Source: Candidatus Woesearchaeota archaeon
GTDB lineage: Archaea > Nanobdellota > Nanobdellia > Pacearchaeales > GW2011-AR1
NCBI GenBank assembly: GCA_964509925.1
Contig: CAZDZI010000004.1
Span: 1-33,827 of the forward strand
Direction: 5' to 3'
Length of the DNA stretch: 33,827 bases
The notes beneath the pieces are model-generated. The model did not search any database. It saw nothing but the letters and a program-made list of their open reading frames with translations, and was not told the DNA's origin. A program made the translations under genes and the position numbers. Positions 3,817 through 32,801 of this stretch are shown piece by piece. How positions within the stretch are numbered: the first letter of the stretch is position 1; each line of letters starts with the position of its first letter.

Positions 3817-3915
3817 CTTTCCTTTATTTTTTTTATTTTTTTTATTTCCTTTCTCCCCTAAAATAGGGGATGGAAGATATTTTTTATCTTAGGCCAGAGG
3901 CCTAGGTGAAATACA

Positions 3916-4293: not shown

Positions 4294-7151
4294 ATCTTCA
4301 AACTAACAATTTTAGATACACCATCATGCATACTAATTCCATATAGATTAGTTGCATTAGTAATTATTTCATCATTATGTGTTATAACTATATATTGTCC
4401 TTTTTGCATGTATTTTGTTAATAAACTAGCTAAACGCTCTGAGTTTCTTTTATCTAATGCAGCATCTATTTCGTCTAAGATATAAAAGCAATAAGGATTT
4501 AATTCTTGTATTGCAAAGATTAATGAAAGAGCCACAAGTGTTTGTTCTCCTCCTGAAAGAGATGTAACATCAAAGTATTTCCCGTGTCCTGTTTTAACAA
4601 GTATATTTACTCCTCCATCAAAAGGGTCTTTTCTGTTTTCTAATTCTAATGTTACTTGCCCCTTAGTTGAAAGTTGAGAAAAATTCCTAGAGAAAATATC
4701 ATTTAATTGCTCTAGTGTTTTTAAGAAAGTCTTTTTCTTTTTAATATCAATTTCATGAATTATCTTAAATATTCCTTGTTTTTCTTCAGCTAATACTTCT
4801 ACCTTTTCTTTAACTGAATCATATTCTTTTTTAATTTCATCATATACATCTAAAGAACGAAGATTTACACTTCCAATCTTATTTAATATTTCTTGTATCT
4901 TGTTTAATTTATGTAAGAGGGTTTCTTTTGAAGCTTTGATTAATTGAATATCTTTAAACTCAAGCATTTCCATTTCTAAATTTTCTATTTCAGCCCCAAT
5001 TCTGGCTTTTTCAATTTTATAATTATTTGCATCTTGTTCTAAATTATATGTTAAATTTTGTTTTAAGGATAACTCAGAATCTCCTTGTCTTATTTTAACT
5101 TGTAAAGAGTCTCTTTCTGAAATAAGTTTTTTGAATTTCTTTGCAAGTTCTTCGTCTTGTTGTCTTTTTTTGTTTAATGACTCTTCTTTTTGATTAATTT
5201 GTTCTTTTACTCTTGCAATTTCTTCATTTAAGTCTTCTTCTTCTCTTAATACTTGTTTTAGTGCTATTTTTGAACGTTCAAATTCACGTTGCTTAAATGA
5301 AATTTCTGAATTAACATTTTCTTTTGTTCTTAAAGAAATCTCTTGGATTTCAACTCTTGCTGTTTCATATTTTTGCTCAATATTTGAATTCTCATCAAAA
5401 TTAGCTTCTAAATATTTTCTTCTTTTTTCTAAATCTGTTAATTCATTTTCAGTTTTTTGTATTTTTTCTCTTAATGCTTTAATCTGCTCTTTTTTGCTAT
5501 CTATATTTGATAATTTTATTAAATCTGACTCACGTTTTGAAAGTTGATTTGATATTGATTCTATGTCCTGTTTCAATACTTTTCTTTTTGATTTAATGTC
5601 ATTAAGTTTCTTAGAAGACTCTTCAATTTCTTTTTTTAATGAAATTATTTTTGGTAGAACTTCATCTTTAATTCCTTTAATATGTTCAAGAGTTATTTTA
5701 TTTTTACATAATGGACAAATATCCATTTTTGCTATATTTTCTACTATTTTATTTTGCTTTCCTATTTCATATTCATTTGTGTGGGCAACTTTTCCAAGTT
5801 CTTGTTCTGATTTTTCAAGATTAAATAGTAAATCTTTTTTACCTTGCAATTGAACTCTTAATTCTGAAATTTTATTTGAAGAAGTTTTTACATCAAATAA
5901 CTCTGAGCTTAAAGATTCAAGTTCTTTTAATATAAAATTTGATTCATTTTTAAATCCAGATAAAAGATTTTTTTTATCTTGTACTCTTTCTAATATAGAT
6001 TTAAGTTCTGACTTAATCATATAGAATTTTTTTCTTTGTTCTTCAAGCTTTTCAAGTTCTTTTTTCTTTGATTCAATATCTTTTAGTTTTTGGGTATTGC
6101 TTGGAGTAGATGATTTTTGGAGTTCTTTTAATTCTAACTCATTCTCTCTAATAGAATTTTTCAGTTCTTGTTTTTGATTTTCAATTTCAGATAGTTTTCT
6201 TTCAGAATTTTCTAATTTAACTGTTAATCCAGCAAGTTCTGCTCTTAAATTAGCTATTTCTTGATTTAATTTTTCTTGTTCAAATCCAGTAGATTTTTGT
6301 ATTGTTGAATTAATTGTATCTATTTTAAGTTCATAATCTCTTATTACTGTTTCAAGATTTGTAATAATCTTTTTTACTTTTATTATTTCATTACCTCTTT
6401 TTTCTATCTCAAAATCAATTCCCTTCATCTCCTTTTGTTTTTTAGATAAATCATAATAAATTGCACTTGCCTTAAACCTTTCAGCATCTTTTTGTAATTT
6501 TTTATATCTTAATGCTTGTTGCCTTTCCTTTTCAAGATTATTCAAATATGCTGTTCTTTCTCTTAATACTGCCATAACTTCTTTTAGTCTTTCTTCTGTC
6601 TTATCTAATTCTTTGAGAGATTTTTGTTTTCGTGATTCATAAATTGAAATTCCAGATACTTCTTCTATTACTTTTCTTCTTTCTTCATTATGCATTCTAG
6701 CAAAATTCTGTATTTCACCTTGTAAAATTATATTAAATCCATTTGGATCAATTCCTGCCTGAGCCAATAGAGATAATACTTCTTGTCTTGTTTTAGTTTC
6801 TTGATTTATTTTATAGATGCTTTGTCCGTTTCTTCTTACTATTCTTTTTATTGAAACTTCTTTTTTATCTATTGAAAAAGTATTATCTGAATTATCAAAA
6901 ACAATCTCTACCTTTGCTTCTTTTGCTGGACCTACTGCTTTTGTTCCTAAAAAGATAAGATTTCTTGCTTTTGCAGCCCTCATTGACTTTATTGATAATC
7001 TACCTAAAACAAAACATAAGGCATCTGAGATATTAGATTTTCCAGATCCATTTGGTCCTAATACACAATTTATTCCAGGTGTAAAAGGTAATTCTGTTTT
7101 TCTTACAAAACTCTTGAATCCTTGCATCACCAATTTTTTAATATAAGCCAT
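4290..7151 (-). CDS. smc: SMC-family ATPase with central CxxC (Rad50-type) zinc hook and no recognisable hinge domain
   Basis: Start set at Met12 (MAYIKKLVMQGFKSF, typical SMC N-terminus). SMC-type motifs are Walker A GPNGSGKSN, SMRAAKARNLIF, Q-loop region ILQGEIQNFARMHNEERRKVIEEVSGI, signature LSGGEQTLVALSLIFAIQ, Walker B FYILDEIDAALD and the C-terminal GISMHDGVSKIVSL. The central ~600 aa is uninterrupted coiled-coil-like sequence, with CPLC encoded at 5706-5717. Confidence 0.8.
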   Translation of the reverse strand: MAYIKKLVMQGFKSFVRKTELPFTPGINCVLGPNGSGKSNISDALCFVLGRLSIKSMRAAKARNLIFLGTKAVGPAKEAKVEIVFDNSDNTFSIDKKEVSIKRIVRRNGQSIYKINQETKTRQEVLSLLAQAGIDPNGFNIILQGEIQNFARMHNEERRKVIEEVSGISIYESRKQKSLKELDKTEERLKEVMAVLRERTAYLNNLEKERQQALRYKKLQKDAERFKASAIYYDLSKKQKEMKGIDFEIEKRGNEIIKVKKIITNLETVIRDYELKIDTINSTIQKSTGFEQEKLNQEIANLRAELAGLTVKLENSERKLSEIENQKQELKNSIRENELELKELQKSSTPSNTQKLKDIESKKKELEKLEEQRKKFYMIKSELKSILERVQDKKNLLSGFKNESNFILKELESLSSELFDVKTSSNKISELRVQLQGKKDLLFNLEKSEQELGKVAHTNEYEIGKQNKIVENIAKMDICPLCKNKITLEHIKGIKDEVLPKIISLKKEIEESSKKLNDIKSKRKVLKQDIESISNQLSKRESDLIKLSNIDSKKEQIKALREKIQKTENELTDLEKRRKYLEANFDENSNIEQKYETARVEIQEISLRTKENVNSEISFKQREFERSKIALKQVLREEEDLNEEIARVKEQINQKEESLNKKRQQDEELAKKFKKLISERDSLQVKIRQGDSELSLKQNLTYNLEQDANNYKIEKARIGAEIENLEMEMLEFKDIQLIKASKETLLHKLNKIQEILNKIGSVNLRSLDVYDEIKKEYDSVKEKVEVLAEEKQGIFKIIHEIDIKKKKTFLKTLEQLNDIFSRNFSQLSTKGQVTLELENRKDPFDGGVNILVKTGHGKYFDVTSLSGGEQTLVALSLIFAIQELNPYCFYILDEIDAALDKRNSERLASLLTKYMQKGQYIVITHNDEIITNATNLYGISMHDGVSKIVSLKI

Positions 7152-20348: not shown

Positions 20349-20432
20349 GCGAGGGTGCCGGAGTGGTCAAACGGGCAGCCCTTAAGAGGCTGTAGCTTAG
20401 TGCTTACGCAGGTTCAAATCCTGTCCCTCGCA
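20349..20432 (+). tRNA. tRNA-Leu (anticodon UAA), type II
   Basis: Hand-folded with acceptor GCGAGGG/CCCTCGC and discriminator A. The anticodon stem is CAGCC/GGCUG with loop CUUAAGA. It has a long variable arm and T-arm GCAGG-UUCAAAU-CCUGU. Confidence 0.8.
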
Positions 20433-20444
20433 TTCGTAAGAAAA

Positions 20445-21014
20445 ATGGTAAATAAAACAATAAAGAAAAAATTAAGTATAATAATTCTTTGTATGATTTT
20501 ATTAATTAATTTGAATCTTGGTCTAATGGGAGGATTTGTTGAAGTTCAACCCTCACTCGTTTCTCCAATAGATTTAGTTTCCTCTCCTATTGTGCCTTCT
20601 GACACTCCTAATGAAAAATTATGGAGTGATGAGGGAATTTGTAAGCACATGAAAGGCTGTTGGATGGGAAATGAATGTTATCCATTTGGATATATAAAAG
20701 ATGGCTCTTACTGCTATGATAAAGCAGAATATTATTATTCTGGGTTTTACACAATTAATTTTGTAAACCAATCTAATTCTAATGAAAGATGTGAATATGA
20801 TTTTCAATGTAAAAGTAATGGGTGTTTTAATGGGAAATGTATGAGTGGCCTAAACACATTCATTAAAGATATTATGTCAAGATTAACAATTCTTGAAAAT
20901 AAAAAAGATTATCAAATTCCAGAAGAAAAACAAATGAATAATTCTAATCAAAGTTTAAAAGGTCCTCAAAAAAGTAATGGAATAACAGGATTTTTTACAA
21001 GGCTATTCAATTAA
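20445..21014 (+). CDS. secreted Cys-rich hypothetical protein
   Basis: The tracked ORF (from 20355) runs through tRNA-Leu, so the start is moved to Met31 (MVNKTIKKKLSIIILCMILLINLNLG, signal/anchor). The body has many Cys (CKHMKGCWMGNECY, CEYDFQCKSNGCFNGKC). Confidence 0.55.
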   Translation: MVNKTIKKKLSIIILCMILLINLNLGLMGGFVEVQPSLVSPIDLVSSPIVPSDTPNEKLWSDEGICKHMKGCWMGNECYPFGYIKDGSYCYDKAEYYYSGFYTINFVNQSNSNERCEYDFQCKSNGCFNGKCMSGLNTFIKDIMSRLTILENKKDYQIPEEKQMNNSNQSLKGPQKSNGITGFFTRLFN

Positions 21015-21049: not shown

Positions 21050-21739
21050 ATGAAAAAGAAATATATTCTAATTTTGACATTTTTAATTTTACTACTTTTT
21101 ATTGTAAATTATAAATTTCTAGATAACCATATTACAAATTTTTTAATGACTAGGGATTCTGTAATTGTTGATCGAATTATTGATGGAGACACCATAGAAG
21201 CACATGGAGAATCAATACGACTTCTTGGGATAAACTCTCCTGAAAAAGGAGAAAAAGGCTATGATGAAGCAAAAGAGTTTCTTGAAGAAATGATTTTAGA
21301 AGAAAAAGTTTATTTAGAATATGGAAAAGAGAGAAAAGATAAATATGATAGAACTCTTGCATATGTTTTTCTTGGAGATTTAAATATAAATATTCAATCT
21401 GTATTAAAAGGATATTCAAATTATTATTTTCCTTCTGGTAAAGACAAGTATTATTTTGCATTCAAATCTGCTTGGGAAGAATGTATTAAGAATAATAAAA
21501 ACAGATGTGAAAAATCAGAAAATGTTTGTATTGATTGTGTGGATATAAATTATAATCAAGAAAAAGTTACCTTGATTAATTATTGTAGTTTTTCATGTGA
21601 TTTTAATGAATGGACCATTAGTGGAGAAGGAAGAAAAATTTTCAATATAAAAGAAAATATTAAAGTAGATGTTGGTGAGCAAGATACATTATTTTTAAGA
21701 GATAAAGAAGATAAATTAATCTTATGGCGAAGTTATTAA
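21050..21739 (+). CDS. membrane-anchored staphylococcal-nuclease (SNase/thermonuclease) homologue with C-terminal lamin-tail-like domain
   Basis: It has an N-terminal TM (YILILTFLILLLFIV). The SNase core is RIIDGDTIEAHGESIRLLGINSPE...YDRTLAYVF. The C-terminal segment VTLINY...FNEWTISGEGRKIFNI...DTLFLRDKEDKLILW resembles an LTD. Confidence 0.7.
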   Translation: MKKKYILILTFLILLLFIVNYKFLDNHITNFLMTRDSVIVDRIIDGDTIEAHGESIRLLGINSPEKGEKGYDEAKEFLEEMILEEKVYLEYGKERKDKYDRTLAYVFLGDLNINIQSVLKGYSNYYFPSGKDKYYFAFKSAWEECIKNNKNRCEKSENVCIDCVDINYNQEKVTLINYCSFSCDFNEWTISGEGRKIFNIKENIKVDVGEQDTLFLRDKEDKLILWRSY

Positions 21740-21780: not shown

Positions 21781-22146
21781 ATGGTAAAAAGAGCTATTTT
21801 TTTAGCAATATTTCTTATTTTAATGATTAATTTTGTAAGTTCAGGAAATGTTCATTTAATTAGCCCGCTTGGAGGAGATAATTCTCTTCAATTAAATCAA
21901 TTCTGTGATGTTGATTGGAGATGCACTAATTGGGGAGAATGCATTGGGGGAGAAAAAACAAGGGTTTGCTATGATGATAATAATTGTCGATTCAAATATA
22001 ATGTTCCTGTAACAAAAATAAAATGTAAAGCAGATGTTAATGTAGGGTATGTTTCAAATTTAAATACTCAATTAATTTTCTTTGGATTTTTTACAGGTAT
22101 TTTACTACTAATTTTGCTTATAATTCTAGTTGGATTACGACGATAG
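21781..22146 (+). CDS. small surface protein with Trp/Cys-rich module and C-terminal TM anchor
   Basis: It has a signal peptide (AIFLAIFLILMINFVSS), the module CDVDWRCTNWGECIGGEKTRVCYDDNNC, and a C-terminal TM (LIFFGFFTGILLLILLIILVGL). Confidence 0.55.
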   Translation: MVKRAIFLAIFLILMINFVSSGNVHLISPLGGDNSLQLNQFCDVDWRCTNWGECIGGEKTRVCYDDNNCRFKYNVPVTKIKCKADVNVGYVSNLNTQLIFFGFFTGILLLILLIILVGLRR

Positions 22147-22161: not shown

Positions 22162-22180
22162 CTTGATATACCCTAATTTA

Positions 22181-22437
22181 GTAGACTAGGTCAGCGGGTT
22201 AGCCCTCCGCTATTTGCAAGTGGGCTTTAGGCAGACTACGAGTGGGGCGTGATGAGCGTGTTAGGGAGTCTTTGTTCCTACATTGACGCTTTGTCCGTTT
22301 TGACTTTGTAGGTGCGAATTGGGTCAGGCCTTGATCGGAGCAGCCCTAACCATTTATTAAAGTGCTTAGCGGGTCGCAGAGCCGAGGAAGAATAAAGGTA
22401 GCTTTCTAAAATGTTTTGAGCTAACCACTTGGTCTAC
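22181..22437 (+). ncRNA. signal recognition particle RNA (7S/SRP RNA)
   Basis: This is a GC-rich island in an AT-rich, ORF-free gap. GGUCAGGCCUUGAUCGGAGCAGCC aligns position for position with the conserved helix-8 SRP54-binding motif GGUCAGGUCCGGAAGGAAGCAGCC. The 5' end GUAGAC...GGUUAGC pairs with the 3' end GCUAACC...GUCUAC. A TATA-like box lies upstream. The exact ends are approximate. Confidence 0.7.
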
Positions 22438-22445
22438 ACTGTGAG

Positions 22446-22540: not shown

Positions 22541-23068
22541 ATGAATAAAAGAGGTCAGTTTTATCTTGCAGCTGCAATTGTGATTGTTGTAGTAATTATT
22601 GGTTTTGCTGCAATTCAAAATTATACTAAAAAACAAAGTTCTAGCCAATTATATGATGTTAAAGATGAACTTGGCATTGAAGGAGGAAAAGTATTAGATT
22701 ATGGAACATATAATTTAGATAGTGAAGAAGATAAAGAACAATTACTAATAGATTTCACAAGTAATTATAGTGAATATGCAGGAGAAGAGAGAAACCTTTA
22801 CTTTGTGTTTGGGAATTCTGAAAAAATTTATGTAATAAAATATGAAGAAATTGCTAGTGGAAGCATTTCTATAAATATTGGGGGCATAACATCTGGATTA
22901 GAAACTTATACTAGTGGAGGAGAAATAGAATCTTATGTTCCTGAAGGAAATGAAGTTATAATTACAATTGACGGGCTTGATTATGAGTTTGAATTAAAAA
23001 GAGGGGAGAACTTTTATTTTATAATTTCTCAAGATATTGAAGGAGAGCAACATGTGGTTATTTCATAA
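22541..23068 (+). CDS. prepilin-like protein (class III signal peptide)
   Basis: The N-terminus MNKRG|QFYLAAAIVIVVVIIGFAAI has a short basic leader ending in Gly, then a hydrophobic helix. It is the first gene of the filament locus. Confidence 0.65.
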   Translation: MNKRGQFYLAAAIVIVVVIIGFAAIQNYTKKQSSSQLYDVKDELGIEGGKVLDYGTYNLDSEEDKEQLLIDFTSNYSEYAGEERNLYFVFGNSEKIYVIKYEEIASGSISINIGGITSGLETYTSGGEIESYVPEGNEVIITIDGLDYEFELKRGENFYFIISQDIEGEQHVVIS

Positions 23069-23567
23069 AAAAGGTGTAAGCATAATGATTGGTTATGTAT
23101 TATTAATTACATTTGCAATAATAATTGGAGGAGTAGTATATACTTGGATGAGTTCTTATGTTCCTACTGAAACTATTGAATGCCCAGATGGTGTTTCTAT
23201 TTTTATTAAAGATGTTGAATGTTCTATTGTTGAAGGAGAGTATCAATTAGCATTAAATATTACAAATAATGGAAGATTTGCTATTGATGGTTATTATCTT
23301 AAAATTTCTAATAATCCTGATATTCCCATTGGCACTATTCCTGTTACAGAAATTATTTCAGGTGGACAATCAGCTCAAGGAGGAATTATTCTTTTTCCTG
23401 GAACAAATTTAGAGCCAGGAAAAAATTCTCTAGGAAATATTTTTAAATTAAGTGAAAAAGCATATATGGTAGAAATTACTCCAATTAGATATAATATTAT
23501 TGATAATAAAAATAGGTTATCTATTTGTGGTAGTGCTAAGGCTAGTGAAAAAATAAGCTGTGAGTAA
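23052..23567 (+). CDS. archaeal pilin-like protein (DUF361/FlaG-FlaF-type N-terminus)
   Basis: Start at ATG 23052, with GGAG 6-8 nt upstream. The N-terminus is MWLFHKKG|VSIMIGYVLLITFAIIIGG, and the beta-rich body includes ITNNGRFAIDGYYLKI. It overlaps the upstream gene by 17 nt. Confidence 0.65.
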   Translation: MWLFHKKGVSIMIGYVLLITFAIIIGGVVYTWMSSYVPTETIECPDGVSIFIKDVECSIVEGEYQLALNITNNGRFAIDGYYLKISNNPDIPIGTIPVTEIISGGQSAQGGIILFPGTNLEPGKNSLGNIFKLSEKAYMVEITPIRYNIIDNKNRLSICGSAKASEKISCE

Positions 23568-23601
23568 TTAAATTTAAATAGTAAGATTAATTTAGGATAG
23601 A

Positions 23602-24063
23602 ATGAAAAAGAAAGGAGTGTCGCCAGTTATTGCTACAGTATTATTAATTGGTATGGTTATTGTTCTAGGACTTATAATATTTTTATGGATGAGGGCTTTA
23701 GCTCAAGAAACAATTACAAAATTTGAAGGAGAAAATATTGAACTTGCTTGTGATAAAGTTCAGTTTGAAGTAAGTAAAGTTGGTAGTCAAATAACAATTC
23801 TTAATTCTGGAAATACTCCTATTTATGATTTTAATATTAAACTCTCTAGCCTAGGAGCTTTTGAAACTAAAAAAGCAAGAGATTTATTTTATAGCTGGCC
23901 AAAATATGGATTAAATCCTGTAGGTGTGTTTTCTGAAGATTCAAGTGAACTAGAAAGTGCTAGTGAGATAATTATTACTCCAATTTTGCTAGGAGTATCT
24001 GAGACTGGAAGTCAAAAGACATTTATTTGCAATGAAAAAAGACATGGACAAGAAGTTTTCTAA
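23602..24063 (+). CDS. archaeal pilin-like protein (canonical KGVSPVIATVLLI N-terminus)
   Basis: MKKKG|VSPVIATVLLIGMVIVLGLIIF is the classic archaeal type IV pilin N-terminal domain. Confidence 0.75.
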   Translation: MKKKGVSPVIATVLLIGMVIVLGLIIFLWMRALAQETITKFEGENIELACDKVQFEVSKVGSQITILNSGNTPIYDFNIKLSSLGAFETKKARDLFYSWPKYGLNPVGVFSEDSSELESASEIIITPILLGVSETGSQKTFICNEKRHGQEVF

Positions 24064-24064
24064 A

Positions 24065-24565
24065 ATGAATAAAAAAGGTATTTCAGGTGTTGTTGCAACA
24101 GTTATTATGATTGCATTAGTTCTTGCTGCAGTTGCAATTGTTTGGGGGGTTGTTACTAATCTAATTGAAGATCAGTTAGAAGAATCTGAAAATTGTTTTA
24201 ATATCTTTGATAAAATTTCATTAAATTCAGCCTATACTTGCTATAATACTTCTAATAATAAACTTCTTTTTTCAGTAAGTGTTGGCGATATTAAAGTAAA
24301 TAAAATTCTTGTTTCTATTTCTGGACAAGGAACAACTAAAAGTTATACTCTTGCAAGTGAAGAGCAAACAATTACTGGGTTAACTATGTATCCTGGAGGA
24401 GAAAGCGAAATTATTATGCCTGAACAAAATGCTGGATTAACATATATTTCAAGTGAATTTCCATCAACGCCAGATTCAATAAGAATATCTCCTATTATTG
24501 GGGAGACTCAATGTGGAGTTACAGATTCTATTTCTCATATTGAGAGCTGTGCACTACTAGCATAA
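24065..24565 (+). CDS. archaeal pilin-like protein
   Basis: Start moved to Met12 of the tracked ORF (ATG 24065, directly after the upstream stop). The N-terminus is MNKKG|ISGVVATVIMIALVLAAVAIV. Confidence 0.7.
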   Translation: MNKKGISGVVATVIMIALVLAAVAIVWGVVTNLIEDQLEESENCFNIFDKISLNSAYTCYNTSNNKLLFSVSVGDIKVNKILVSISGQGTTKSYTLASEEQTITGLTMYPGGESEIIMPEQNAGLTYISSEFPSTPDSIRISPIIGETQCGVTDSISHIESCALLA

Positions 24566-24654
24566 TCCTAAAGAATCAACAAAGTCATTTGATTAGAGAA
24601 AGTAAATATTATAAAGCAATTTCTACTAAAGATAATATAAAAAGAGAGATACAG

Positions 24655-25179
24655 ATGAATAATAAAGCTCAAATCTGGATTGAAACAGTGATATATACAT
24701 TAATTGCATTTGTTTTAATAGCGGCTGTGTTAGCATTTGTAAAACCAAAAATTGATGAGCTTCAAGACAAAGCAATAATTGAACAATCAATTAGTATGCT
24801 AAAAGATGTAGACTCCACTGTTAGAGATGTTGTTCAAGGAGGAAGTGGAAATAAAAGAAAATTAGAGATTGGGATAAACAAAGGAAATTTTCAAATTGAT
24901 GGGGAAAGTAATTTATTATTATTTGAAATTGAAAGTAATTTTATCTATAGTGAAATTGGAAAAGAGATTTATGATGGAAATATCATTATTAAAACAAAAG
25001 AATTAGGGGATAAAGGGATTGTTACATTAAAAAGAGTTTACGAGGATTATAATATTACATTTAATAATAAGGAGGCTATAAAAACAATTGGCAAGGCTGC
25101 AACATCATATAATTTATTTGTATCAAATAAAGGAAGAAATGAAAATGATACTTGGCAAGTAGATTTTGAATTAAATTAA
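24655..25179 (+). CDS. prepilin-like protein with Glu at +5
   Basis: Start moved to ATG 24655 (the tracked ORF begins at TTG 24589). The N-terminus is MNNKA|QIWIETVIYTLIAFVLIAAVLAF. Confidence 0.6.
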   Translation: MNNKAQIWIETVIYTLIAFVLIAAVLAFVKPKIDELQDKAIIEQSISMLKDVDSTVRDVVQGGSGNKRKLEIGINKGNFQIDGESNLLLFEIESNFIYSEIGKEIYDGNIIIKTKELGDKGIVTLKRVYEDYNITFNNKEAIKTIGKAATSYNLFVSNKGRNENDTWQVDFELN

Positions 25180-25180
25180 A

Positions 25181-26737
25181 ATGATAAAGGAAAACACAGA
25201 CATAAGTAAGTTTCCAAAAGTAGAGATTAATTTTAATCCAAAGATTCCTTTATTAAAAAAAATTGCAGATAAATCTCATGTAAATGTTAGATATGGTTTA
25301 ATTTCCCCATTTGCTTATGCACATATTCATTGGGATGAAAAAAGATTTGAATTAGTTTATGATATTGAAGAACCAATTTTAAATAATCAAGAAATACAAT
25401 ATAAAAATGACCTTATCTCTGCTATGAAAGAAATAATTAATTTTGAAAAAGTAGTAGAAAAGAAAAAAGAATCTTTATTAGAATATCTAGACAAAATGTT
25501 TAGGGTTTTAGCTGTTGAATTAGGAATGACTATGAACTATGAAAGTTATAAGAAGATTTTTTATTACATTGTAAGAGATTTTATGGGATTTAATGAGATT
25601 GAACCTTTACTAAGAGATTATTTTGTAGAAGATATTGAATGCAATGGTGTTGGCTCTCCTGTTTATCTTGTTCATAGAATTTATAGGAATTTGAGAACAA
25701 ATCTTACATATAAAAGTATGGATAAAGTAGAGGGTTTTGTTGAAAAACTTGCTCAAAGAAGTGGAAAATATATTTCATATTCTAATCCTATTTTAGATGC
25801 AAGTCTTCCCGATGGTAGCAGAGTTAATGCAACTTATACTAAAGACATTACTAGTAAAGGTCCTACATTTACTATTAGAAAATTCACAAAAACTCCTTGG
25901 ACTCCCCCTCAATTATTAGCATTTAGAACTCTTAGTCCTGAGATGCTTTCTTACTTATGGCTTTTAACTCAATATGGTTCAAATATTCTTATTGCAGGAG
26001 GAACAGCTTCTGGAAAAACTACTTTATTAAATGCCATGGCTTTTTTTATCCCTCCAGAAAAAAGAGTTGTTAGTATTGAAGATACAAAAGAATTAAATCT
26101 TCCAAGAGAAAACTGGCTTCCCAGTGTTGTTAGAACAGCCACAGGAGTTGGAGGGGCTGGAGAAATAGACTTATTTACCTTGCTTAGAGCTTCATTTAGA
26201 CAAAATCCAGATTATGTAATCGTTGGTGAAGTTAGAGGTAAAGAAGCATATGTATTGTTTCAAGGAATGGCTTCAGGACATTCCTCAATTGGAACTATTC
26301 ACGCAGATTCTGTTGACACTGTAATAAAAAGACTAGAAAGTCCTCCAATAAGTTTATCTCCTACTTTAGTTAATTTGCTTGATTGTGTATGTATTATGAG
26401 TCATGCAAGTGTACAAGGGATAGAAACAAGAAAATTAAGAGAAATGGTAGAAGTGTTAGATGTAGATAACGCAGGAGTTGCTTTGACAAATAAACCATTT
26501 ATCTGGAATGCTCAAGAAGATAATTTTTATTATAAAGAAGGTAATAAGATGTTTGAAAAAATTGCAATAAGAAATGGCTTGAAAATGGAAGATTTAGAAA
26601 GAGAATTTAAAAGAAGATCTGAATTATTAAGAAAAATGCATAAACAAAAAATATTCAAATTCAAGCAAGTTCAGGATTTAATTAATGAATACTATAAGAA
26701 ACCTCAAGAGGTTTTGAAAAGATTTGGTATTAGGTGA
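25181..26737 (+). CDS. type IV filament assembly ATPase (FlaI/PilB/TadA, GspE superfamily)
   Basis: Motifs are Walker A GGTASGKTT, SIEDTKEL, Walker B/Asp box PDYVIVGEVRGKEA, His box GHSSIGTIHA and the N-terminal ECNGVGSPVYLVH segment. It is 518 aa long. Confidence 0.85.
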   Translation: MIKENTDISKFPKVEINFNPKIPLLKKIADKSHVNVRYGLISPFAYAHIHWDEKRFELVYDIEEPILNNQEIQYKNDLISAMKEIINFEKVVEKKKESLLEYLDKMFRVLAVELGMTMNYESYKKIFYYIVRDFMGFNEIEPLLRDYFVEDIECNGVGSPVYLVHRIYRNLRTNLTYKSMDKVEGFVEKLAQRSGKYISYSNPILDASLPDGSRVNATYTKDITSKGPTFTIRKFTKTPWTPPQLLAFRTLSPEMLSYLWLLTQYGSNILIAGGTASGKTTLLNAMAFFIPPEKRVVSIEDTKELNLPRENWLPSVVRTATGVGGAGEIDLFTLLRASFRQNPDYVIVGEVRGKEAYVLFQGMASGHSSIGTIHADSVDTVIKRLESPPISLSPTLVNLLDCVCIMSHASVQGIETRKLREMVEVLDVDNAGVALTNKPFIWNAQEDNFYYKEGNKMFEKIAIRNGLKMEDLEREFKRRSELLRKMHKQKIFKFKQVQDLINEYYKKPQEVLKRFGIR

Positions 26738-26785
26738 TTAAATAGAATTAATCTCTTTTCCTTTAAAGAACCTTATTTAAAATTA

Positions 26786-28150
26786 TTAAAGTGTTATTCT
26801 TAACAACATAATAACTCCAATTAATATAATCAAGATTGAACTAATTAGTTTAAGAATATTATATCCTTTAAATTCTTCAGGAATGAAATTAAATGCTTTT
26901 TTGAAATGTAGGAATAGGAAAGATATTGCTAGGATTGTTGAAATTAAACCTAAAGAAAAGAAAAGCAATGAAAATAATGCTTGATAATACAAGTTCAATG
27001 AAATTAATATTGAAAATAAAAGCCAAGCAGTTGGGCATGGTGCAAGTCCAGCTAATATTCCTATTGAAAAAAGATTTTTCTTCTCTGATTTATGATGATG
27101 TGAAGGGTCATGTTCGTGATTATGCATGTGATCATTCTCGTAAGTATGTAAGTGAGTATGTTCATGAGGATGTTTGTGGGGATGTTCATGACTATGTCCG
27201 TGATGGTGATGTGTATGAGCCTTATTTTTACTAATGTTTTTTAAGAAGAAATTTATACCAAACATAATTATTAAAAGTGCAGCAAAAATTGTTATATAGT
27301 TCATATATTCATTTTTTAAGCTTAGCGGCAAAAATAAAAAAACAAAACTCAACAATAACACATCTAAAACATGGGTTGTTGCAGTTGTTAAAGAAAGAAT
27401 TAAAATATCTTTATTAGAAACTTTTTTCCCAATAATATACGAAACAATTAAAGATTTTCCATGACCTGGAGAAAAACTATGTAATACTCCTAAAAAAAAG
27501 GAAAAAATAAGAAATAAGAAAAAGTACTCTTTCTTTTTTGAAAGTTCAATAACCTTATTAAAAATATTGGAATTCTCTTGTATTTTAGTTTCATTTAATT
27601 CTTCTTGGAGATTGATACTATCAAAGTTTATTTTGCCTGGATTAATGCCACAAATTTTAGAATAATTATACTCAATCTCAGGTAGAGTCATGTCTGTATA
27701 AATAACTTTCACTGAATTTGTACAATTTACTACATAATATTGTTCAAAATAATATCCTGTCTTTTCGTAAAATAAATTATTTTTTAAATTTAAAGAATTA
27801 ATATTTGAAAAACATTCATAAGTAACATTATATCTTTCAACAGAACTAGATAAATCAAAGAATTTTGAGAAGGATGATTCTACTAGAGAACATTCTTTTC
27901 CATCTTGAATTATGGTTAAGTTTTTGTTAAAGTTTTGAATAGAATAATTAAAATAATCAAAACCACTGCATTGATAATCATTACAAAACATAGGTACAAC
28001 TATCTCCAAATTTAAGGTATTATTTTCTGTTTCAATAAAGATATTTGAATAAGGAACTGAATGTGCTTGAGAAACCGGGATTATTAGTAAAAAAAGGAAA
28101 AATAATAAGATTAAACTTATCCCGAATCTTTTATTGGTTTGGATTATCAT
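26786..28150 (-). CDS. RcnA/NicO-family nickel/cobalt transporter with N-terminal extracellular domain and His-rich loop
   Basis: NicO signatures HSFSPGHGKS and GLAPCPTAW are present. The cytoplasmic-loop stretch HTHHHHGHSHEHPHKHPHEHTHLHTYENDHMHNHEHDPSHHH (27092-27217) has 21 His in 42 residues. An N-terminal signal peptide is followed by a ~180-aa Cys- and NxS/T-rich domain. Confidence 0.7.
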   Translation of the reverse strand: MIIQTNKRFGISLILLFFLFLLIIPVSQAHSVPYSNIFIETENNTLNLEIVVPMFCNDYQCSGFDYFNYSIQNFNKNLTIIQDGKECSLVESSFSKFFDLSSSVERYNVTYECFSNINSLNLKNNLFYEKTGYYFEQYYVVNCTNSVKVIYTDMTLPEIEYNYSKICGINPGKINFDSINLQEELNETKIQENSNIFNKVIELSKKKEYFFLFLIFSFFLGVLHSFSPGHGKSLIVSYIIGKKVSNKDILILSLTTATTHVLDVLLLSFVFLFLPLSLKNEYMNYITIFAALLIIMFGINFFLKNISKNKAHTHHHHGHSHEHPHKHPHEHTHLHTYENDHMHNHEHDPSHHHKSEKKNLFSIGILAGLAPCPTAWLLFSILISLNLYYQALFSLLFFSLGLISTILAISFLFLHFKKAFNFIPEEFKGYNILKLISSILIILIGVIMLLRITL

Positions 28151-28310
28151 TATAAAAAATAAAAATCATAGTGATTTATAAAGATTCTTTTTTAAGGGGG
28201 CTTTTTCATACCCCTCAAGGGCACAAGTAAAAAATTCTTTAGAGTATAACTAGAAAGAATTTTATTCGATAAACACAATCTTTAATAATATATTTTTCTT
28301 CAGTCTTTTA

Positions 28311-28475
28311 ATGAAAAAAGAGGATATATCTTTTCTTATGCAATTAGTGGAATCTTTAGAAGATTCTGAAAAAAAATTAGAAGAAATTTACAAAAAACAA
28401 GATGTGAATGAATTCAATAAAATAAAAAAGTTTATGTTAGAAATGCAATCACAAATCTCAGGATTATTAAAATGA
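28311..28475 (+). CDS. small coiled-coil ORF (54 aa) translationally coupled to the platform gene
   Basis: It is below the ORF-track cutoff. Hand translation gives MKKEDISFLMQLVESLEDSEKKLEEIYKKQDVNEFNKIKKFMLEMQSQISGLLK. Its TGA overlaps the downstream ATG (ATGA at 28472-28475). Confidence 0.45.
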   Translation: MKKEDISFLMQLVESLEDSEKKLEEIYKKQDVNEFNKIKKFMLEMQSQISGLLK

Positions 28476-29824
28476 TTATAAAAACTTCAATAATGGATTT
28501 AAAAGAAAAGATTTTTAGAGAAGCTAAAACTGCTAAAGAAATTAATTCTTTGTATAATGGGTTTGAAAGTAGTAAAGACCCTTCAGAAAAGGAAATGATT
28601 GATTCTCAGATTAAATCATTAACTATTGCTCTTAAAAAGAATAACGAGGATTTAAAGACAACACTTCAATCATTACATCTTACAAAAAAATTATCTGAAA
28701 TTACAAATATGCCAAAACCTCAAAGAAATATTCCCTCACTTCCTGCAACATTAAAACCCCTTGAACATAGCATTACAAAGCCTTCTCTTAAAATAGCTCA
28801 ACCTATTCCAAAGACTATGGTTAAAAAAACAGAATTTAAATTAACTGATTTAGAAAAAGAAACTTTAAAGAGACTAAGAAAAAAAGAAAAGAAAGTTGAA
28901 ATTAAAAAAGAAAGAAAACCAAGTCTTTATGTTAGAACATCTAATAAATTCTTTTCAAAAATTTCAGGTAAATTATTAGACAAAGGATATTTTAGAACTA
29001 TGAAAAGAAATTTGATTAAATCAAATATGCCTTACTTATCAAAGAGCTATGTTTCAATGATGTTTTTTTCATTAATTATATCTTTTTTTGTTGCTTGTGT
29101 AATTGTAGGAGTTTTATTATTTGTTAATGTGGGGGTTTCATTTCCTTTTATTAGTCTTGTAACAAGAGGTTTTGCAACAAGGCTTTTAGCACTTTCATGG
29201 TTATTGCCAGTTATTCCTCTGGGAACATTCTTAATTATGTATGTTTATCCTGCATTAGAGAAAAAATCTATTGAAGCTAAGATAAATCAAGAACTGCCTT
29301 TTGCAACAATACATATGGCAGCTATTTCAGAATCCTCTATAGAACCAAGCAATATATTTAAAATAATTGTTTCAACAAAAGAATATCCTACTCTTCAAAA
29401 AGAATTTATTAAATTACTTAATGAAATAAATGTTTTTGGATATGATTTAGTTACTGCTCTAAGAAATCTTGCATTTAATAGTCCAAGTAAGAAACTTACA
29501 GAATTATTTGATGGGTTAGCTACAACAATAACTACTGGAGGAGATTTATCTGACTTTTTTGGTAAAAGAGCTCAAACACTATTATTTGATTATAGATTAG
29601 AAAGAGAAAAACAAACAAAATCAGCTGAAACATTTATGGATATTTATATTAGTGTTGTTATTGCAGCTCCAATGATATTAATGTTATTATTAATTATGAT
29701 GAGAATTAGTGGATTAGGTATTTCATTAAGTGCAATAATGATTTCAGTTGTTATGTCTTTAGGTGTAGCAATAATAAATGTCGCGTTTTTAACATTTTTA
29801 CAATTAAAACAACAAAATCAATAA
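28472..29824 (+). CDS. type IV filament platform protein 1 (T2SSF domain; FlaJ/TadB/EpdJ-like) with long N-terminal extension
   Basis: The T2SSF-like segment is ELPFATIHMAAISESSIEPSNIF...GYDLVTALRNLA...LFDGLATTITTGGDLSDFF, flanked by TM helices. The first ~190 aa are a charged soluble extension. Confidence 0.75.
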   Translation: MIIKTSIMDLKEKIFREAKTAKEINSLYNGFESSKDPSEKEMIDSQIKSLTIALKKNNEDLKTTLQSLHLTKKLSEITNMPKPQRNIPSLPATLKPLEHSITKPSLKIAQPIPKTMVKKTEFKLTDLEKETLKRLRKKEKKVEIKKERKPSLYVRTSNKFFSKISGKLLDKGYFRTMKRNLIKSNMPYLSKSYVSMMFFSLIISFFVACVIVGVLLFVNVGVSFPFISLVTRGFATRLLALSWLLPVIPLGTFLIMYVYPALEKKSIEAKINQELPFATIHMAAISESSIEPSNIFKIIVSTKEYPTLQKEFIKLLNEINVFGYDLVTALRNLAFNSPSKKLTELFDGLATTITTGGDLSDFFGKRAQTLLFDYRLEREKQTKSAETFMDIYISVVIAAPMILMLLLIMMRISGLGISLSAIMISVVMSLGVAIINVAFLTFLQLKQQNQ

Positions 29825-29825
29825 A

Positions 29826-30659
29826 ATGGCAATAAAAGGTTTTCACTTTGTTGGAATTTTTTTAGGGTTAGTTGTAACAGGATTATCTTTTTTATTTTAT
29901 GGTGAAGCAATATTTTTCTTTTTAATTGGAATAGGAATTTTAATTGCTGCTTCTCCAATGGTTATAGGAGTTATTAAAAATACTACTGTTGCAAATGAAA
30001 AAGAAGAAATGTTTTTAGAGTTTGCAAGAAATCTTGTTGAAAGTGTTAATACTGGAGCTCCAATAAGTAAGAGTATTTTAAATGTTAAAGAAAGGCCTTA
30101 TGGAGTTTTAGGACCTCATGTAAAAAAACTTGCTAATCAAATACAATTAGGGATTCCATTAAACAAAGCACTTACAACTTTTTCAAAAGATGTTAATAAT
30201 AAAACAATTTCAAGAGCATTGACTTTAATTGGTCAGGCAGAGAGAGCAGGAGGAGATATTGGGGTTATTCTTGAATCAGTTGCTGAAGCAGTTAGTATGT
30301 CAGAAAAATTAAAGAAAGAAAGAAAAGCTGCTATTTCCACATTAGTTGTTCAGGGATATATTATCTTTGTTGTATTTATTATTATTGTTTTAGTTATGCA
30401 ATTTAGAATTCTTCCAATGATTTCAGGTATTGCAGATGTTGGAGGAGCAATAGGGCTTGGTGAAGGTGGACAGACAATAGATCAATCAGAAATATCAAAT
30501 GCATTCTTATATTTACTTTTGATTCAAGGACTTTTTAGTGGATTAACTATTGGTAAGCTTTCAGAGAATAATGTAAAAGCAGGGATTAAACACTCTTTTA
30601 CTCTAATGTTCTTATCATTTATAATTTCAGCAGGAGCAAATCTTTTATTTGGAGCTTAA
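29826..30659 (+). CDS. type IV filament platform protein 2 (T2SSF domain; FlaJ/TadC/EpdK-like)
   Basis: The T2SSF-like segment is FLEFARNLVESVNTGAPISKSI...LGIPLNKALTTF...LIGQAERAGGDIGVILESVA, flanked by TM helices. It starts 2 nt after the upstream stop. Confidence 0.75.
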   Translation: MAIKGFHFVGIFLGLVVTGLSFLFYGEAIFFFLIGIGILIAASPMVIGVIKNTTVANEKEEMFLEFARNLVESVNTGAPISKSILNVKERPYGVLGPHVKKLANQIQLGIPLNKALTTFSKDVNNKTISRALTLIGQAERAGGDIGVILESVAEAVSMSEKLKKERKAAISTLVVQGYIIFVVFIIIVLVMQFRILPMISGIADVGGAIGLGEGGQTIDQSEISNAFLYLLLIQGLFSGLTIGKLSENNVKAGIKHSFTLMFLSFIISAGANLLFGA

Positions 30660-30660
30660 A

Positions 30661-31362
30661 ATGAATCGTAAAGCATCACATGTGGGAGTAGTTTTATCTT
30701 TTGTTATATTTATAACATTTATTATTTTTTTATATTCTATAACTGAACCAGCTACAACTGTTGATAGAGGCAAGGAAGATTTATTAGAATATCTTAAAAC
30801 AGAATTAATTAGAGATTTTAGTGCAGATATGACAACTGAAACAATTTTGATAAAAGACTCTGTTGTTTCTGACTGTGTTCGTATTGATACTGAAGATGGG
30901 GATTTAACTACCATAGCTAAAGATGAAGAAACAGGGAACATCCTAGAGTCGTATTTTGATGGAAATAAAGTAGAAATAAAAAGAAATAGTGCTACTAATT
31001 TAAAAGTATATTATTCTGAAGAATTTCCAGAAATATATTCTAGCTTAGGTTGTACTGACTTAAATGAAGAGGATTATGAATTTGGGTTAGTAAGAACAAT
31101 GGAAGAGATATTTGAAAGTAGAATATTAAACTTTTCAAATTTTATTAATAACTCTCAAGGCTATGATTCAATAAAAGAGGAATATAATATTCCTCCTGGA
31201 AGTGAATTTGGTTTTGCTTTTGAAGATGGAAATAGAAATGTTCTTGTTGAAACACAAGATAAAGATGTCTCAACAGATATTTATGTTAATGAAGTAACAA
31301 TCCAGTATATTGATAACGAAGCTAATATAAAGCCAGGGTTCATTAGGATAAAAGTATGGTGA
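30661..31362 (+). CDS. prepilin-like protein
   Basis: Start moved to ATG 30661, just after the upstream stop. The N-terminus is MNRKA|SHVGVVLSFVIFITFIIFLY, followed by an acidic globular domain. Confidence 0.55.
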   Translation: MNRKASHVGVVLSFVIFITFIIFLYSITEPATTVDRGKEDLLEYLKTELIRDFSADMTTETILIKDSVVSDCVRIDTEDGDLTTIAKDEETGNILESYFDGNKVEIKRNSATNLKVYYSEEFPEIYSSLGCTDLNEEDYEFGLVRTMEEIFESRILNFSNFINNSQGYDSIKEEYNIPPGSEFGFAFEDGNRNVLVETQDKDVSTDIYVNEVTIQYIDNEANIKPGFIRIKVW

Positions 31363-31390
31363 ATAAAGAGCACTAGTAGCTGATTAAAAA

Positions 31391-31810
31391 ATGATAATGC
31401 ATAATAAAAGAGGATGGATAAAAATTATAGAAGCGTTTATTGCAATATTATTAGTAGCAGGAGTTTTATTATTTGTTATAAATAAAGGGTATGTTGGAAA
31501 GAGAGATATTTCTGGTAGAGTTTATGAAGCTCAGGTTGCAATATTAAGAGAAATTGAATTAGAAGAGGGTCTAAGAACCCAGATTCTTAATGCTAATCTA
31601 GGAGGAGTTGTACCTCAAGCAGTTTTAGATAAAATTGAACAAAGAAAACCAGATTATTTGACTTGTGATGGAAAAATTTGTGGATTAGATGCTATTTGTG
31701 AATTAGATTCTTATATTGAAAAAGATATTTATGCTCAATCAGTTGCAATTGTTGCTGATAAAGATAATTTTGAACCAAGGCAATTAAAATTATTTTGTTG
31801 GACTGACTAA
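31391..31810 (+). CDS. prepilin-like protein
   Basis: The N-terminus is MIMHNKRG|WIKIIEAFIAILLVAGVLLFVI. The C-terminal domain has four Cys. An alternative start exists at 31397. Confidence 0.6.
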   Translation: MIMHNKRGWIKIIEAFIAILLVAGVLLFVINKGYVGKRDISGRVYEAQVAILREIELEEGLRTQILNANLGGVVPQAVLDKIEQRKPDYLTCDGKICGLDAICELDSYIEKDIYAQSVAIVADKDNFEPRQLKLFCWTD

Positions 31811-31847
31811 TTTCTAGAAAAAAATAGAATTTATTTTATAAATTAAA

Positions 31848-32348
31848 TTACCATCCATACTCATTTGCTGAACATAAATTATTATAACCTTTTACATTAA
31901 TTCCATCGCTTGCTGCAGTTGCAATAGATTTGCATATTTCACTTCCCTCAATATATTCCAATGTTGTACTTGTTCCATTTTCCCAACCAGAACTTTTTCC
32001 ATTACAATCCCCATCACGTCCTCCCTCTGTCCAAGCCCTTGTTTGAACCTGACCATTAACATATCTTGCTTGAGCATATACTTCTACAAGACTAGTATAT
32101 GGATAACGGCTAGAAGGATACTCACAATTTGCAATTGGAGTATAAAAAGAAACAGAACCTAATCCTTCAAAAGAAATTTCCCCTAAATTAATATTATCAA
32201 TTTTATCATTCCAATTTATCTCTCCAACAGAATGCCCAACAACACTTGGACTTGAAGTTCCATAAGCATAAACTAATCCTCCAGCTAAAAGAAACATAAT
32301 TCCTAGAATCATTAAAACTCCTCTTTTTTCTATTGATATTGTCACCAT
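31848..32348 (-). CDS. prepilin-like or secreted Cys-containing protein
   Basis: The N-terminus is MVTISIEKRG|VLMILGIMFLLAGGLVYA, followed by a Gly/Ser/Tyr/Trp-rich domain with Cys. It is convergent with the end of the filament locus. Confidence 0.5.
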   Translation of the reverse strand: MVTISIEKRGVLMILGIMFLLAGGLVYAYGTSSPSVVGHSVGEINWNDKIDNINLGEISFEGLGSVSFYTPIANCEYPSSRYPYTSLVEVYAQARYVNGQVQTRAWTEGGRDGDCNGKSSGWENGTSTTLEYIEGSEICKSIATAASDGINVKGYNNLCSANEYGW

Positions 32349-32396: not shown

Positions 32397-32801
32397 ATGA
32401 GATTTAAATATTTAGAACATACTGCAGATATTAAATTCCAAGCATTTGGCGATTCAATTGAAGAAGCTTTTAAAAATTCTGCACTTGCTATGACAAATTC
32501 TATGTTTGATGGCAAAGTTAAAAAGAGAATAACAAAAAAAATAAAAGTTCAGGGAAAAGATAATGAAAGATTATTATATGAATTCTTAGAGGAGTTATTA
32601 TTTTTATTAGATTCTGAAGACTTTATTTTATCTGAAGTAAAAAAGATTAAAATTAATAAAAATAAATTAGAAGCTGAACTTATTGGAGATACTGCTTCAA
32701 ATTATGATTTTGGTATTGTTGTCAAAGCAATAACATACAATGAGATGTTTGTAAAAAATGAAAAAAAGAAATGGATTACTCAAGTAGTTATAGATGTATA
32801 A
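32397..32801 (+). CDS. archease (RtcB activator)
   Basis: MRFKYLEHTADIKFQAFGDSIEEAF and KAITYNEM match the archease family. It is 134 aa long. Confidence 0.85.
   Translation: MRFKYLEHTADIKFQAFGDSIEEAFKNSALAMTNSMFDGKVKKRITKKIKVQGKDNERLLYEFLEELLFLLDSEDFILSEVKKIKINKNKLEAELIGDTASNYDFGIVVKAITYNEMFVKNEKKKWITQVVIDV

Follow-up and report, generated by a model that had tools for sequence, protein, structure and literature searches.

Type IV pili of DPANN archaea are known already, and the diversity of archaeal type IV filaments was catalogued in 2016 and again in 2026. In published work, DPANN genomes are credited with 'type IV pili (FlaIJK) but not archaellum' (PMC8561730). Here we analyze a locus of this kind at positions 22541-31810 of contig CAZDZI010000004.1 from a Candidatus Woesearchaeota archaeon (assembly GCA_964509925.1). 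The window, by which we mean the whole stretch of DNA that was analyzed, is this contig of a metagenome-assembled genome (MAG) in its full length of 33,827 nucleotides (nt), and statements about what is encoded in cis cover the contig. A preliminary description of this DNA had proposed a multi-pilin filament locus that is Epd/Tad-like and not an archaellum. Our analysis indicates that the locus probably encodes a non-motility archaeal type IV pilus, conserved as a core trait among DPANN archaea of the Pacearchaeota/Woesearchaeota type.

Seven components, ArlF, ArlG, ArlH and archaellin among them, occur in all archaellated archaea (Makarova 2016). The Epd pilus of Methanococcus maripaludis and the bacterial Tad pilus fall into an Epd-like/Tad clade whose traits are a fissioned platform, short pilins and a TadZ/FlaH-like protein, with genes in the order platform-platform-ATPase-second ATPase (Denise 2019, PMC6668835). 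The GspE protein of A. fulgidus (AfGspE) was assigned to another group, clade 2/arCOG01817 (Makarova 2016, Figure S4). In the same study many clade 2 loci carry two tadC-like genes, and Nanoarchaeota are listed with clade 2 ATPases. A 2026 preprint by Sivabalasarma & Albers describes loci with two platform genes for System 1 and also for the DPANN subsystem 4A.

Results

A conserved operon with a recurrent gene order

Three of the parts expected of the type IV filament superfamily are present in the window: an ATPase of the PilB/GspE/FlaI family, a platform with T2SSF domains, and class III-type N-termini on seven pilin-like proteins, P1 to P7 (Table 1). Domains were assigned by Pfam and NCBIfam searches and RNA genes by Rfam; folds were predicted with AlphaFold2 using family alignments, and compared with the PDB by Foldseek. 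All eight open reading frames (ORFs) that the preliminary description had taken for prepilins, P1 to P8, are there, as are the single ATPase gene and the two T2SSF genes that it had placed among them. A rule for class III signal peptides, which asks for K/R and then G/A among the first 15 residues and for a stretch of about 20 hydrophobic ones after them, recovered all eight ORFs, with 0.06 matches in shuffled windows. It also returned two internal-start artefacts inside the platform genes F1 and F2 and two weaker candidates outside the locus, at 2035-2484 and 21781-22146, the latter of which looks Sec-type. The ORF at 2035-2484 (+) has the class III-like N-terminus MEKG/DWIAIMAIVLIVVIGLAVYF and no Pfam family.

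Table 1. Features of the pilus locus and its immediate surroundings, in window coordinates; a slash marks the cleavage-type site.
Feature	Description	Position	Strand	Evidence
SRP (7S) RNA	signal recognition particle RNA gene, not a pilus component	22179..22439	+	Rfam Archaea_SRP 75 bits, E=5.8e-17, full model 1-317
P1	pilin-like, orphan family	22541..23068	+	N-terminus MNKRG/QFYLAAAIV, Gln at +1
P2	archaeal-type pilin, paralog of P3	23052..23567	+	N-terminus KKG/VSIMIGYVLL
P3	canonical archaeal type IV pilin	23602..24063	+	N-terminus KKKG/VSPVIATVLLI; TIGR02537 36.2 bits (cut-off 20)
P4	archaeal-type pilin, distant P2/P3 paralog	24065..24565	+	N-terminus NKKG/ISGVVATVIMIAL
P5	pilin-like, orphan family	24655..25179	+	N-terminus NNKA/QIWIETVIYTLIAF, Gln +1, Glu +5
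ATPase	assembly ATPase, PilB/FlaI/GspE family	25181..26737	+	T2SSE 107.6 bits; PilB3_C 27.6 bits (cut-off 27)
NicO	NicO-family nickel/cobalt transporter	26786..28150	-	Pfam NicO 50.8 bits
sX	54-residue helical cytoplasmic protein (predicted)	28311..28475	+	stop overlaps F1 start codon
F1	N-terminal platform half, one T2SSF domain	28472..29824	+	T2SSF 52.2 bits
F2	C-terminal platform half, one T2SSF domain	29826..30659	+	T2SSF 57.6 bits
P6	pilin-like, orphan family, largest of the set	30661..31362	+	N-terminus NRKA/SHVGVVLSFVIF
P7	pilin-like, orphan family	31391..31810	+	N-terminus HNKRG/WIKIIEAFIAILLV, Glu at +6
P8	lineage-specific secreted or anchored protein	31848..32348	-	no family; not conserved

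The genes follow the order P1-P2-P3-P4-P5-ATPase-F1-F2-P6-P7. With a small protein, sX, the list of parts comes to 11 conserved genes. Comparison loci came from exact-protein look-ups (6) and from a scan of GTDB species genomes (43, of which 41 are archaeal). The same gene order recurs in MAGs of Pacearchaeota, Woesearchaeota and Nanoarchaeota whose ATPases are 52-86% identical to that of the window; in all, the order is conserved in 41 related archaeal (DPANN) loci, with ATPase identities to the window of 41% to 86%. Orthologous families of P1 to P7 were present in 25-43 of 50 fetched loci. More than 7,900 homologs of the ATPase gene were found at E<=1e-20, and the best 120 are 68-100% identical, those with names belonging to Pacearchaeota, Nanoarchaeota or Woesearchaeota.

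Woesearchaeota-like loci have three P3-like genes where P2 to P4 would stand, and insertions fall at two or three fixed points across relatives, where a KTI12-like kinase, a RibD_C protein or a glycosyltransferase may be found. In loci from Aenigmatarchaeota the ATPase and the split platform are shared; pilin families were not detected on these contigs, which have little or no flanking sequence.

A motor with affinity to the AfGspE/PilB3 type

When the ATPase was compared with the sequences of solved structures, the best match was AfGspE (AF0659, PDB 2OAP) at 360.6 bits, covering query residues 32-512 and so nearly end to end. FlaI scored 286 bits and CpaF, the Tad ATPase, 167 bits. Among family models, the FlaI equivalog NF058587 gave 377 bits (cut-off 550), TadA 146.5 bits and BasE, the sole clade 4 reference compared, 199.5 bits. 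The Walker A stretch GGTASGKTT is common to AfGspE, FlaI and CpaF, as are the flanking stretches VVSIEDT, IVGEVRG and GH...T.HA, and we take these four stretches to be the catalytic boxes. By best match rather than by tree, the ATPase appears closest to the AfGspE/PilB3 type and would be clade 2-like. Three orthologous ATPase genes are interrupted by inteins. Those of L039 (2969-5977) and L046 (835-3942) carry an intein of about 480 residues at a SIED/T site, running from Ser1 to HN/T, and that of L043 (2827-5979) carries one after GPTF (Cys1), with Pfam Intein_splicing and LAGLIDADG_3 domains.

Other features of the locus also recall clade 2, or System 2 of the 2026 preprint, represented by AfGspE and by PilB3-PilC3 of Haloferax volcanii with its PilA adhesion pilins: the PilB3_C domain of the ATPase, the position of the ATPase gene before the platform genes, and the Pilin_N/TIGR02537 N-terminus of P2 to P4. 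The pilins associated with clade 2 are of the PilA (arCOG02416) or arCOG02911 families, and P2 to P4 match no more than the generic N-terminus of archaeal pilins. In contrast to PilB3C3, which has no pilins in cis, the locus has its pilin-like genes in cis, in fixed order and on both sides of the motor. No counterpart was detected there for P1, P5, P6, P7 or sX, and System 2 of the preprint has a single platform gene where this locus has two. The clade 2 affinity of the locus as a whole is likewise suggested by best matches, not by a tree.

Together the two platform genes encode a single platform protein, fissioned into an N-half and a C-half. On the ArlJ model of 555 positions, F1 covers positions 19-242 and F2 covers 279-546, and F1 reaches 89.5 bits (equivalog cut-off 550). 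In most of 39 loci, one Aenigmatarchaeota locus included, F1 and F2 are encoded separately, with 0-2 nt between them. F1 carries an N-terminal extension of about 200 residues without transmembrane segments, the first of which lies at residue 189; the extension is presumably cytoplasmic. The small gene sX, whose stop overlaps the start codon of F1, is translationally coupled to F1. In most of the 39 loci the gene immediately before F1 is an ORF of similar size and pattern, which in many cases overlaps F1 by 4 nt, and sX is counted as the eleventh conserved gene. Neither per-ortholog scans with NCBIfam and Pfam nor a profile search against PDB sequences gave a consistent family for sX. An assignment to DUF7438 was rejected, as the match occurs in one member only.

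The motor genes are homologous to those of the archaellum, and the pilin/archaellin N-terminal domain is common to both systems. The locus differs from an archaellum in its split platform, in the lack of a stator (ArlF/G) and in ATPase and F1 scores below the equivalog cut-offs. No window ORF matches a Pfam or NCBIfam family for ArlH/KaiC, ArlF/G or ArlCDE/X, and none of these components was found in the annotated +/-10 kb flanks of relatives (for ArlH/KaiC, the flanks of L002, L004 and L006). No pilin-like protein matches the archaellin domain (Arch_flagellin), P3 and P4 matching the N-terminal domain TIGR02537 only; archaellin is likewise absent from the annotated flanks of relatives, and the model of P6 has no ArlF/G-like match in the PDB. 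The conclusion of the preliminary description that the locus, without FlaH/KaiC, FlaC/D/E, FlaX or archaellin genes in the window, is not an archaellum holds on these sequence comparisons.

Seven pilin-like proteins with five kinds of globular domain

All seven pilin-like proteins are 139-233 residues long. Their globular parts, compared alone by hhalign profile-profile alignment, form five families, one made up of the paralogs P2, P3 and P4 and one each for P1, P5, P6 and P7, which are unrelated to P2-P4 and to each other. The cleavage-type motif is position-specific in P1 to P7, with K/R at -2 in about 90-100% of orthologs and G/A at -1. The N-termini are strongly conserved within each family and differ between families; we count at least five N-terminal classes where two had been proposed. 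One of those two, KG/VSPVIA, had been called DUF361-like, and it matches Pilin_N/TIGR02537 and not PF04021. We take DUF361 to be defined by a QxSxE motif.

P2 to P4 resemble known archaeal pilins. P2 and P3 are linked by an hhalign probability of 93% over their globular domains, and P4 is more distant (34% to P2, 18% to P3). Pilin_N and UpsA models match the group below threshold, P2 with 15.6 bits to Pilin_N and E=5.8e-7 to UpsA; P4 scores 21.3 bits with Pilin_N and 29.8 bits with TIGR02537 (cut-off 20). P3 occurs in 40 loci with the family motif K[KR]G/[VIL]SPVIATVLLI, and it is this gene that is triplicated in the Woesearchaeota-like loci. The P4 family motif is KK[GA]/[ILV]SGVVATVIMIAL.

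The other four proteins are orphans, for which sequence profiles found nothing significant among solved structures. P1 orthologs occur in 25 loci with the motif K[KR]G/QFYL (Gln at +1 in 22/22, K/R at -2 in 20/22), and no Pfam, NCBIfam or PDB family was found for them. P5 belongs to a family of about 1009 clusters at 50% identity, and its stop codon lies 1 nt before the ATPase start. Its motif is K[KR]G/Q[VI]W[VI]ETVIYTLIAF, with Gln at +1 in 38 and Glu at +5 in 34 of the 41 orthologs from comparison loci. In a 57-sequence alignment of closer Pacearchaeota-type relatives Q6, W8 and E10 are invariant, which bears out the Glu at +5 noted in the preliminary description. The best match of P5 among solved structures is an archaeal flagellin N-terminus, at a marginal sequence-profile E=0.044. 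Taken singly, P5 orthologs match ComGE, GspG, ComGD or UpsA weakly, and no family consistently.

P6 orthologs occur in 31 loci with the motif K[KR]G/SHVG..LSFVIF; none of 79 sequences departs from His at +2 or Gly at +4, and more distant orthologs have Glu at +5. P7 orthologs, from 30 loci, share N[KR]G/W[IL][KR]I[IV]EAF, in which Glu at +6 is constant (27/27) and Trp at +1 frequent (22/27). No family was found for P7 in Pfam and NCBIfam scans, per-ortholog scans included, nor in a profile search of PDB sequences. P5 and P7, two orphans, thus have a conserved Glu in bacterial style, at +5 or +6. An apparent P7 of 596 residues in L019 is an artefact in which masked Ns join P7 to RtcB.

The AlphaFold2 models of P5 and P6 are confident and predict the classic lollipop shape of pilins. 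That of P5 (pLDDT, the predicted local distance difference test score, 90.7) has a helix at residues 3-61 followed by a ten-strand beta domain, and that of P6 (pLDDT 90.3) a helix at 5-53, beta domains and two short helices. Foldseek gave no PDB fold match below E=0.07 for either model, and P6 has no match by sequence profile. The globular domains, which the preliminary description could not assign, have thus resisted Pfam, NCBIfam and PDB sequence profiles, and for P5 and P6 comparison of folds as well. P1, P5, P6 and P7 are called pilins here because of their N-terminal motif, their genomic context and, for P5 and P6, the predicted folds.

The motor genes evolve more slowly than any of the pilin-like genes. 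P3 is among the slowest of the latter, and evolutionary rate and sequon counts together single out no major pilin. In some relatives, pilin-like proteins carry further domains: a BD-FAE esterase follows a P5-like pilin at its C-terminal end (L017, 3338-5236, 177.6 bits), a P4-like pilin bears C-terminal LVIVD repeats (L010, 7545-8621), and a P2 protein has a C-terminal Cys-rich DUF4215 repeat (L004, 6578-7735).

P8 fits the class III rule, as had been claimed for all eight ORFs, and conservation of the site extends to P1 to P7. As an eighth pilin P8 was rejected: its homologs number only two and are weak (32.5 and 29.7 bits), with V or N at -1 in place of G/A, and the gene lies on the opposite strand. 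Its sequence makes it most likely an ordinary signal or anchor protein outside the pilus system. P8 and its homologs (L009, 8113-8667; L031, 10132-11274) share an 'INIS.K' n-region, a transmembrane segment and a 'VYAYG.S.P..GHS.GEI.W' motif, and their C-terminal parts vary, being Cys-rich or Gly-rich.

In agreement with the preliminary description, no A24-family prepilin peptidase is encoded in the window; NicO, F1 and F2 are the sole polytopic membrane proteins there. The single GxGD protease in the related archaeal loci is a presenilin-type signal peptide peptidase and was rejected as a prepilin peptidase. We infer that the enzyme is encoded elsewhere in the genome, as is common; flaK has been detected in Woesearchaeota MAGs (PMC11606122).

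Neighboring genes

The window has a G+C content of about 29% and carries archaeal housekeeping genes, among them a Toprim/DnaG-type primase, SMC, RNase HII, a DtdA-type deacylase, a diphthine-synthase-like methylase, TrmB, Dus and archease. Three features of the locus were absent from the preliminary description: sX, an insertion on the opposite strand and an RNA gene upstream of P1.

The RNA gene fills what had looked like a gap of about 400 nt upstream of P1. It encodes the SRP RNA and has about 49% GC within the 29% GC genome. Its score lies below the Rfam gathering score of 96.5, so that standard annotation misses it; it was found with an E-value threshold and missed at the gathering threshold. 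Of about 22 loci in which this could be tested, 20 have an SRP RNA gene ahead of P1 on the same strand, in most cases at a distance of 16-480 nt, and the linkage is kept even where the genes farther upstream differ. It may reflect shared or read-through transcription, or plain synteny.

The insertion is a NicO gene whose product has an N-terminal domain that looks extracellular, together with a long loop rich in His. The gene stands between the ATPase and platform genes in this genome only (L001 is the same sequence as the window), and it is an insertion unrelated to the pilus operon.

A gene of the staphylococcal nuclease (SNase) family lies upstream of the operon at 21050-21739 (+; 44.9 bits), and 7 related loci, among them L002, L004, L006, L012, L021 and L040, have such a gene upstream of the operon too. 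Its product has a hydrophobic N-terminus and is probably secreted or anchored. The linkage may be plain synteny or a hint of DNA scavenging. Farther upstream, an ORF at 20355-21014 (+), listed with 219 residues, starts inside a tRNA-Leu gene (20349-20432), and its true start probably lies farther downstream, at the Met of MVNKTIKKK...; the product is Cys-rich, secreted-looking and without a family. On the other side, archease (32397-32801, +; 134.3 bits) is often the next gene after the P1-P7 operon order in relatives: 13 loci have it, and in many of these it comes immediately after P7. Several relatives also have the gene of its known partner, RtcB, close by. On a Pacearchaeota contig, L006, a pair of neighboring ORFs at 3760-5894 (-) carries domains of bacterial sigma-70 regions 2 and 3 (PF04542, PF04539) and stands just ahead of the SRP RNA gene and the pilus operon; horizontal transfer, a mobile element or misassembly could account for them.

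Discussion

Altogether, the conserved gene order, the motor and the N-termini of P1 to P7 are consistent with a type IV pilus, and the following route of assembly can be proposed for it. Prepilins would insert into the membrane, and an A24 prepilin peptidase encoded elsewhere would cleave them after the conserved G/A. The hexameric ATPase would dock on an F1-F2 heterodimer, perhaps through sX and the N-terminal extension of F1, and would extract the pilins from the membrane and add them to a helical filament packed through their N-terminal helices. One or more of P2 to P4, most likely P3, would form the shaft, and P1, P5, P6 and P7 would be minor pilins that prime assembly or form a complex at the tip or base. 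The filament would then attach to host cells or to surfaces and, in some relatives, display enzymes or adhesin domains.

The division of labor among the pilins draws on several observations. P3, or the P2-P4 group, is our candidate for the major subunit, because these are canonical pilins of an expanded family and because genes annotated 'flaB' are highly expressed in Woesearchaeota, where they stand among the top-10 expressed genes of MAGs (PMC11606122). For the four orphans the comparison is one of analogy, to the minor-pilin sets of bacteria (GspH-K of the type II secretion system (T2SS), FimU/PilVWX of the type IVa pilus (T4aP), ComGD-GG of the competence (Com) system), which would resemble this locus in having one abundant pilin type and four low-copy types near the motor. 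The likeness extends to the conserved acidic residue at +5/+6 in P5 and P7 and to the long alpha-1 helix of P5, of about 56 residues. It does not extend to significant similarity of sequence or fold, and the cleavage sites here, with K/R at -2 and G/A at -1, are of archaeal type. By the same analogy, a role in priming would fit the acidic residue of P5 and P7, as well as the position of the P5 gene 1 nt ahead of the ATPase gene.

A role in host attachment or uptake is, we infer, consistent with the clade-wide conservation of the locus and with the adhesin and enzyme fusions in relatives. Surface contact or scavenging fits because the pilins evolve fast, because of these domain fusions and because of published micrographs: PMC9938205 cites micrographs of pili that link cells of DPANN and of the candidate phyla radiation (CPR) to hosts.

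Several points weigh against the pilus that we propose. The filament is known here from genes alone, and adhesion and host contact go beyond them, as a short pseudopilus for uptake or secretion would look alike in sequence. Four of the seven pilin-like proteins match no pilin family in Pfam, NCBIfam or PDB profiles. The opposite-strand NicO insertion splits the operon into two transcription units in this genome. Finally, no prepilin peptidase lies in the window or within +/-10 kb in related archaeal loci, so that processing of the pilins is no more than predicted.

The first of these points leads to the alternative that survives best, although we consider it unlikely: a short pseudopilus or 'functionalised' filament for uptake or surface display, similar to a competence pilus, a T2SS or a bindosome. 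One major and four minor pilins make up the sets of the T2SS, Com and T4aP systems, and a locus with one paralog group and four single-copy pilin-like proteins resembles them. The weak matches of P5 orthologs to ComGE, GspG and ComGD point the same way, as do the P5-like pilin-esterase fusion and the SNase gene upstream of the operon in the window and in 7 related loci, whose product we would expect to be secreted; the 2026 preprint moreover proposes type IV filament machineries functionalised with binding proteins that carry class III signals. However, no ComEC/ComEA-like channel, substrate-binding protein or secretin analogue was found in the window, the SNase gene is not linked to the operon in every locus, so that mere synteny may explain the linkage, and the ComG/GspG matches are singly non-significant (best E ~1e-3 in a library of ~19,000 models). 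Sequence does not tell a short filament from a long one.

Less probable still, and in our view quite doubtful, is the suggestion of the preliminary description, an Epd-type pilus (Makarova clade 1 or 'System 1'), which among archaeal pili is sister to the bacterial Tad pilus. The two adjacent platform genes with one T2SSF domain each are the trait that unites Epd and Tad in Denise 2019, several pilin-like proteins share the locus as they do in Epd, the 2026 preprint lists DPANN among the System 1 lineages, and P1 and P5 have Gln at +1, with Glu at +5 in P5, as in EppA substrates. The split platform is not diagnostic, however, because it is found in clade 2 and DPANN 4A loci too. The remaining evidence also runs against this assignment. 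The ATPase scores far higher with AfGspE (361 bits) and FlaI than with CpaF; the genes run ATPase-sX-F1-F2, the reverse of the Epd/Tad order; no second, TadZ/FlaH-like ATPase is encoded in the window; and there is no EppA in cis. Five of the seven pilins lack Gln at +1, no pilin matches DUF361/PF04021, and all are at least 139 residues long with globular domains. A Flp/EpdE-like pilin of about 70 residues without a globular domain is absent from the locus and could be encoded elsewhere in the genome. What stands of the Epd/Tad label is therefore the split platform; the gene order, the second ATPase and the Flp-like pilin do not accompany it, and the best matches of the ATPase argue against membership in that clade.

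A reduced or divergent archaellum serving motility is highly improbable: many homologs are named 'flagellar protein FlaI' by the Joint Genome Institute (JGI), the best NCBIfam models are the FlaI equivalog for the ATPase and ArlJ for F1 and F2, and P3 and P4 match the N-terminal domain shared by archaellins and pilins, but both equivalog cut-offs are missed, the ATPase is nearer AfGspE than FlaI, no pilin-like protein matches the archaellin family, and neither the window nor the +/-10 kb flanks of relatives hold ArlF, ArlG, ArlH, ArlCDE or ArlX.

The type IV pilus that we favor overturns nothing: it is a lineage-specific variant of the archaeal type IV pilus. In the literature we found no prior description of the 11-gene architecture, of the four orphan pilin families, of sX or of the linkage to the SRP RNA. 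'FlaI/flagellar' and 'Epd/Tad' are misleading labels for this locus and are corrected here. A bolder proposal, which we put forward tentatively and regard as possible rather than probable, is that the locus represents a distinct, DPANN-specific subtype of archaeal type IV filament, with a clade 2-like ATPase, an anciently fissioned platform, sX, four orphan minor-pilin families in a priming or tip complex and a near-fixed linkage to the SRP RNA, and that it would serve as the main host-contact organelle of Pacearchaeota and Woesearchaeota and as a modular scaffold for enzymes and adhesins. If this is true, the esterase, LVIVD and Cys-rich fusions in relatives would be enzymes and adhesins grafted onto a filament scaffold.

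Pacearchaeota and Woesearchaeota are abundant, uncultured and ultra-small archaea that are thought to live attached to other cells. The operon extends over about 7.8 kb in a genome of probably <1 Mb, and in the neighborhood of its ATPase it ranks among the best conserved modules without a housekeeping role. It is for these reasons a prime candidate for the organelle by which these cells make contact.

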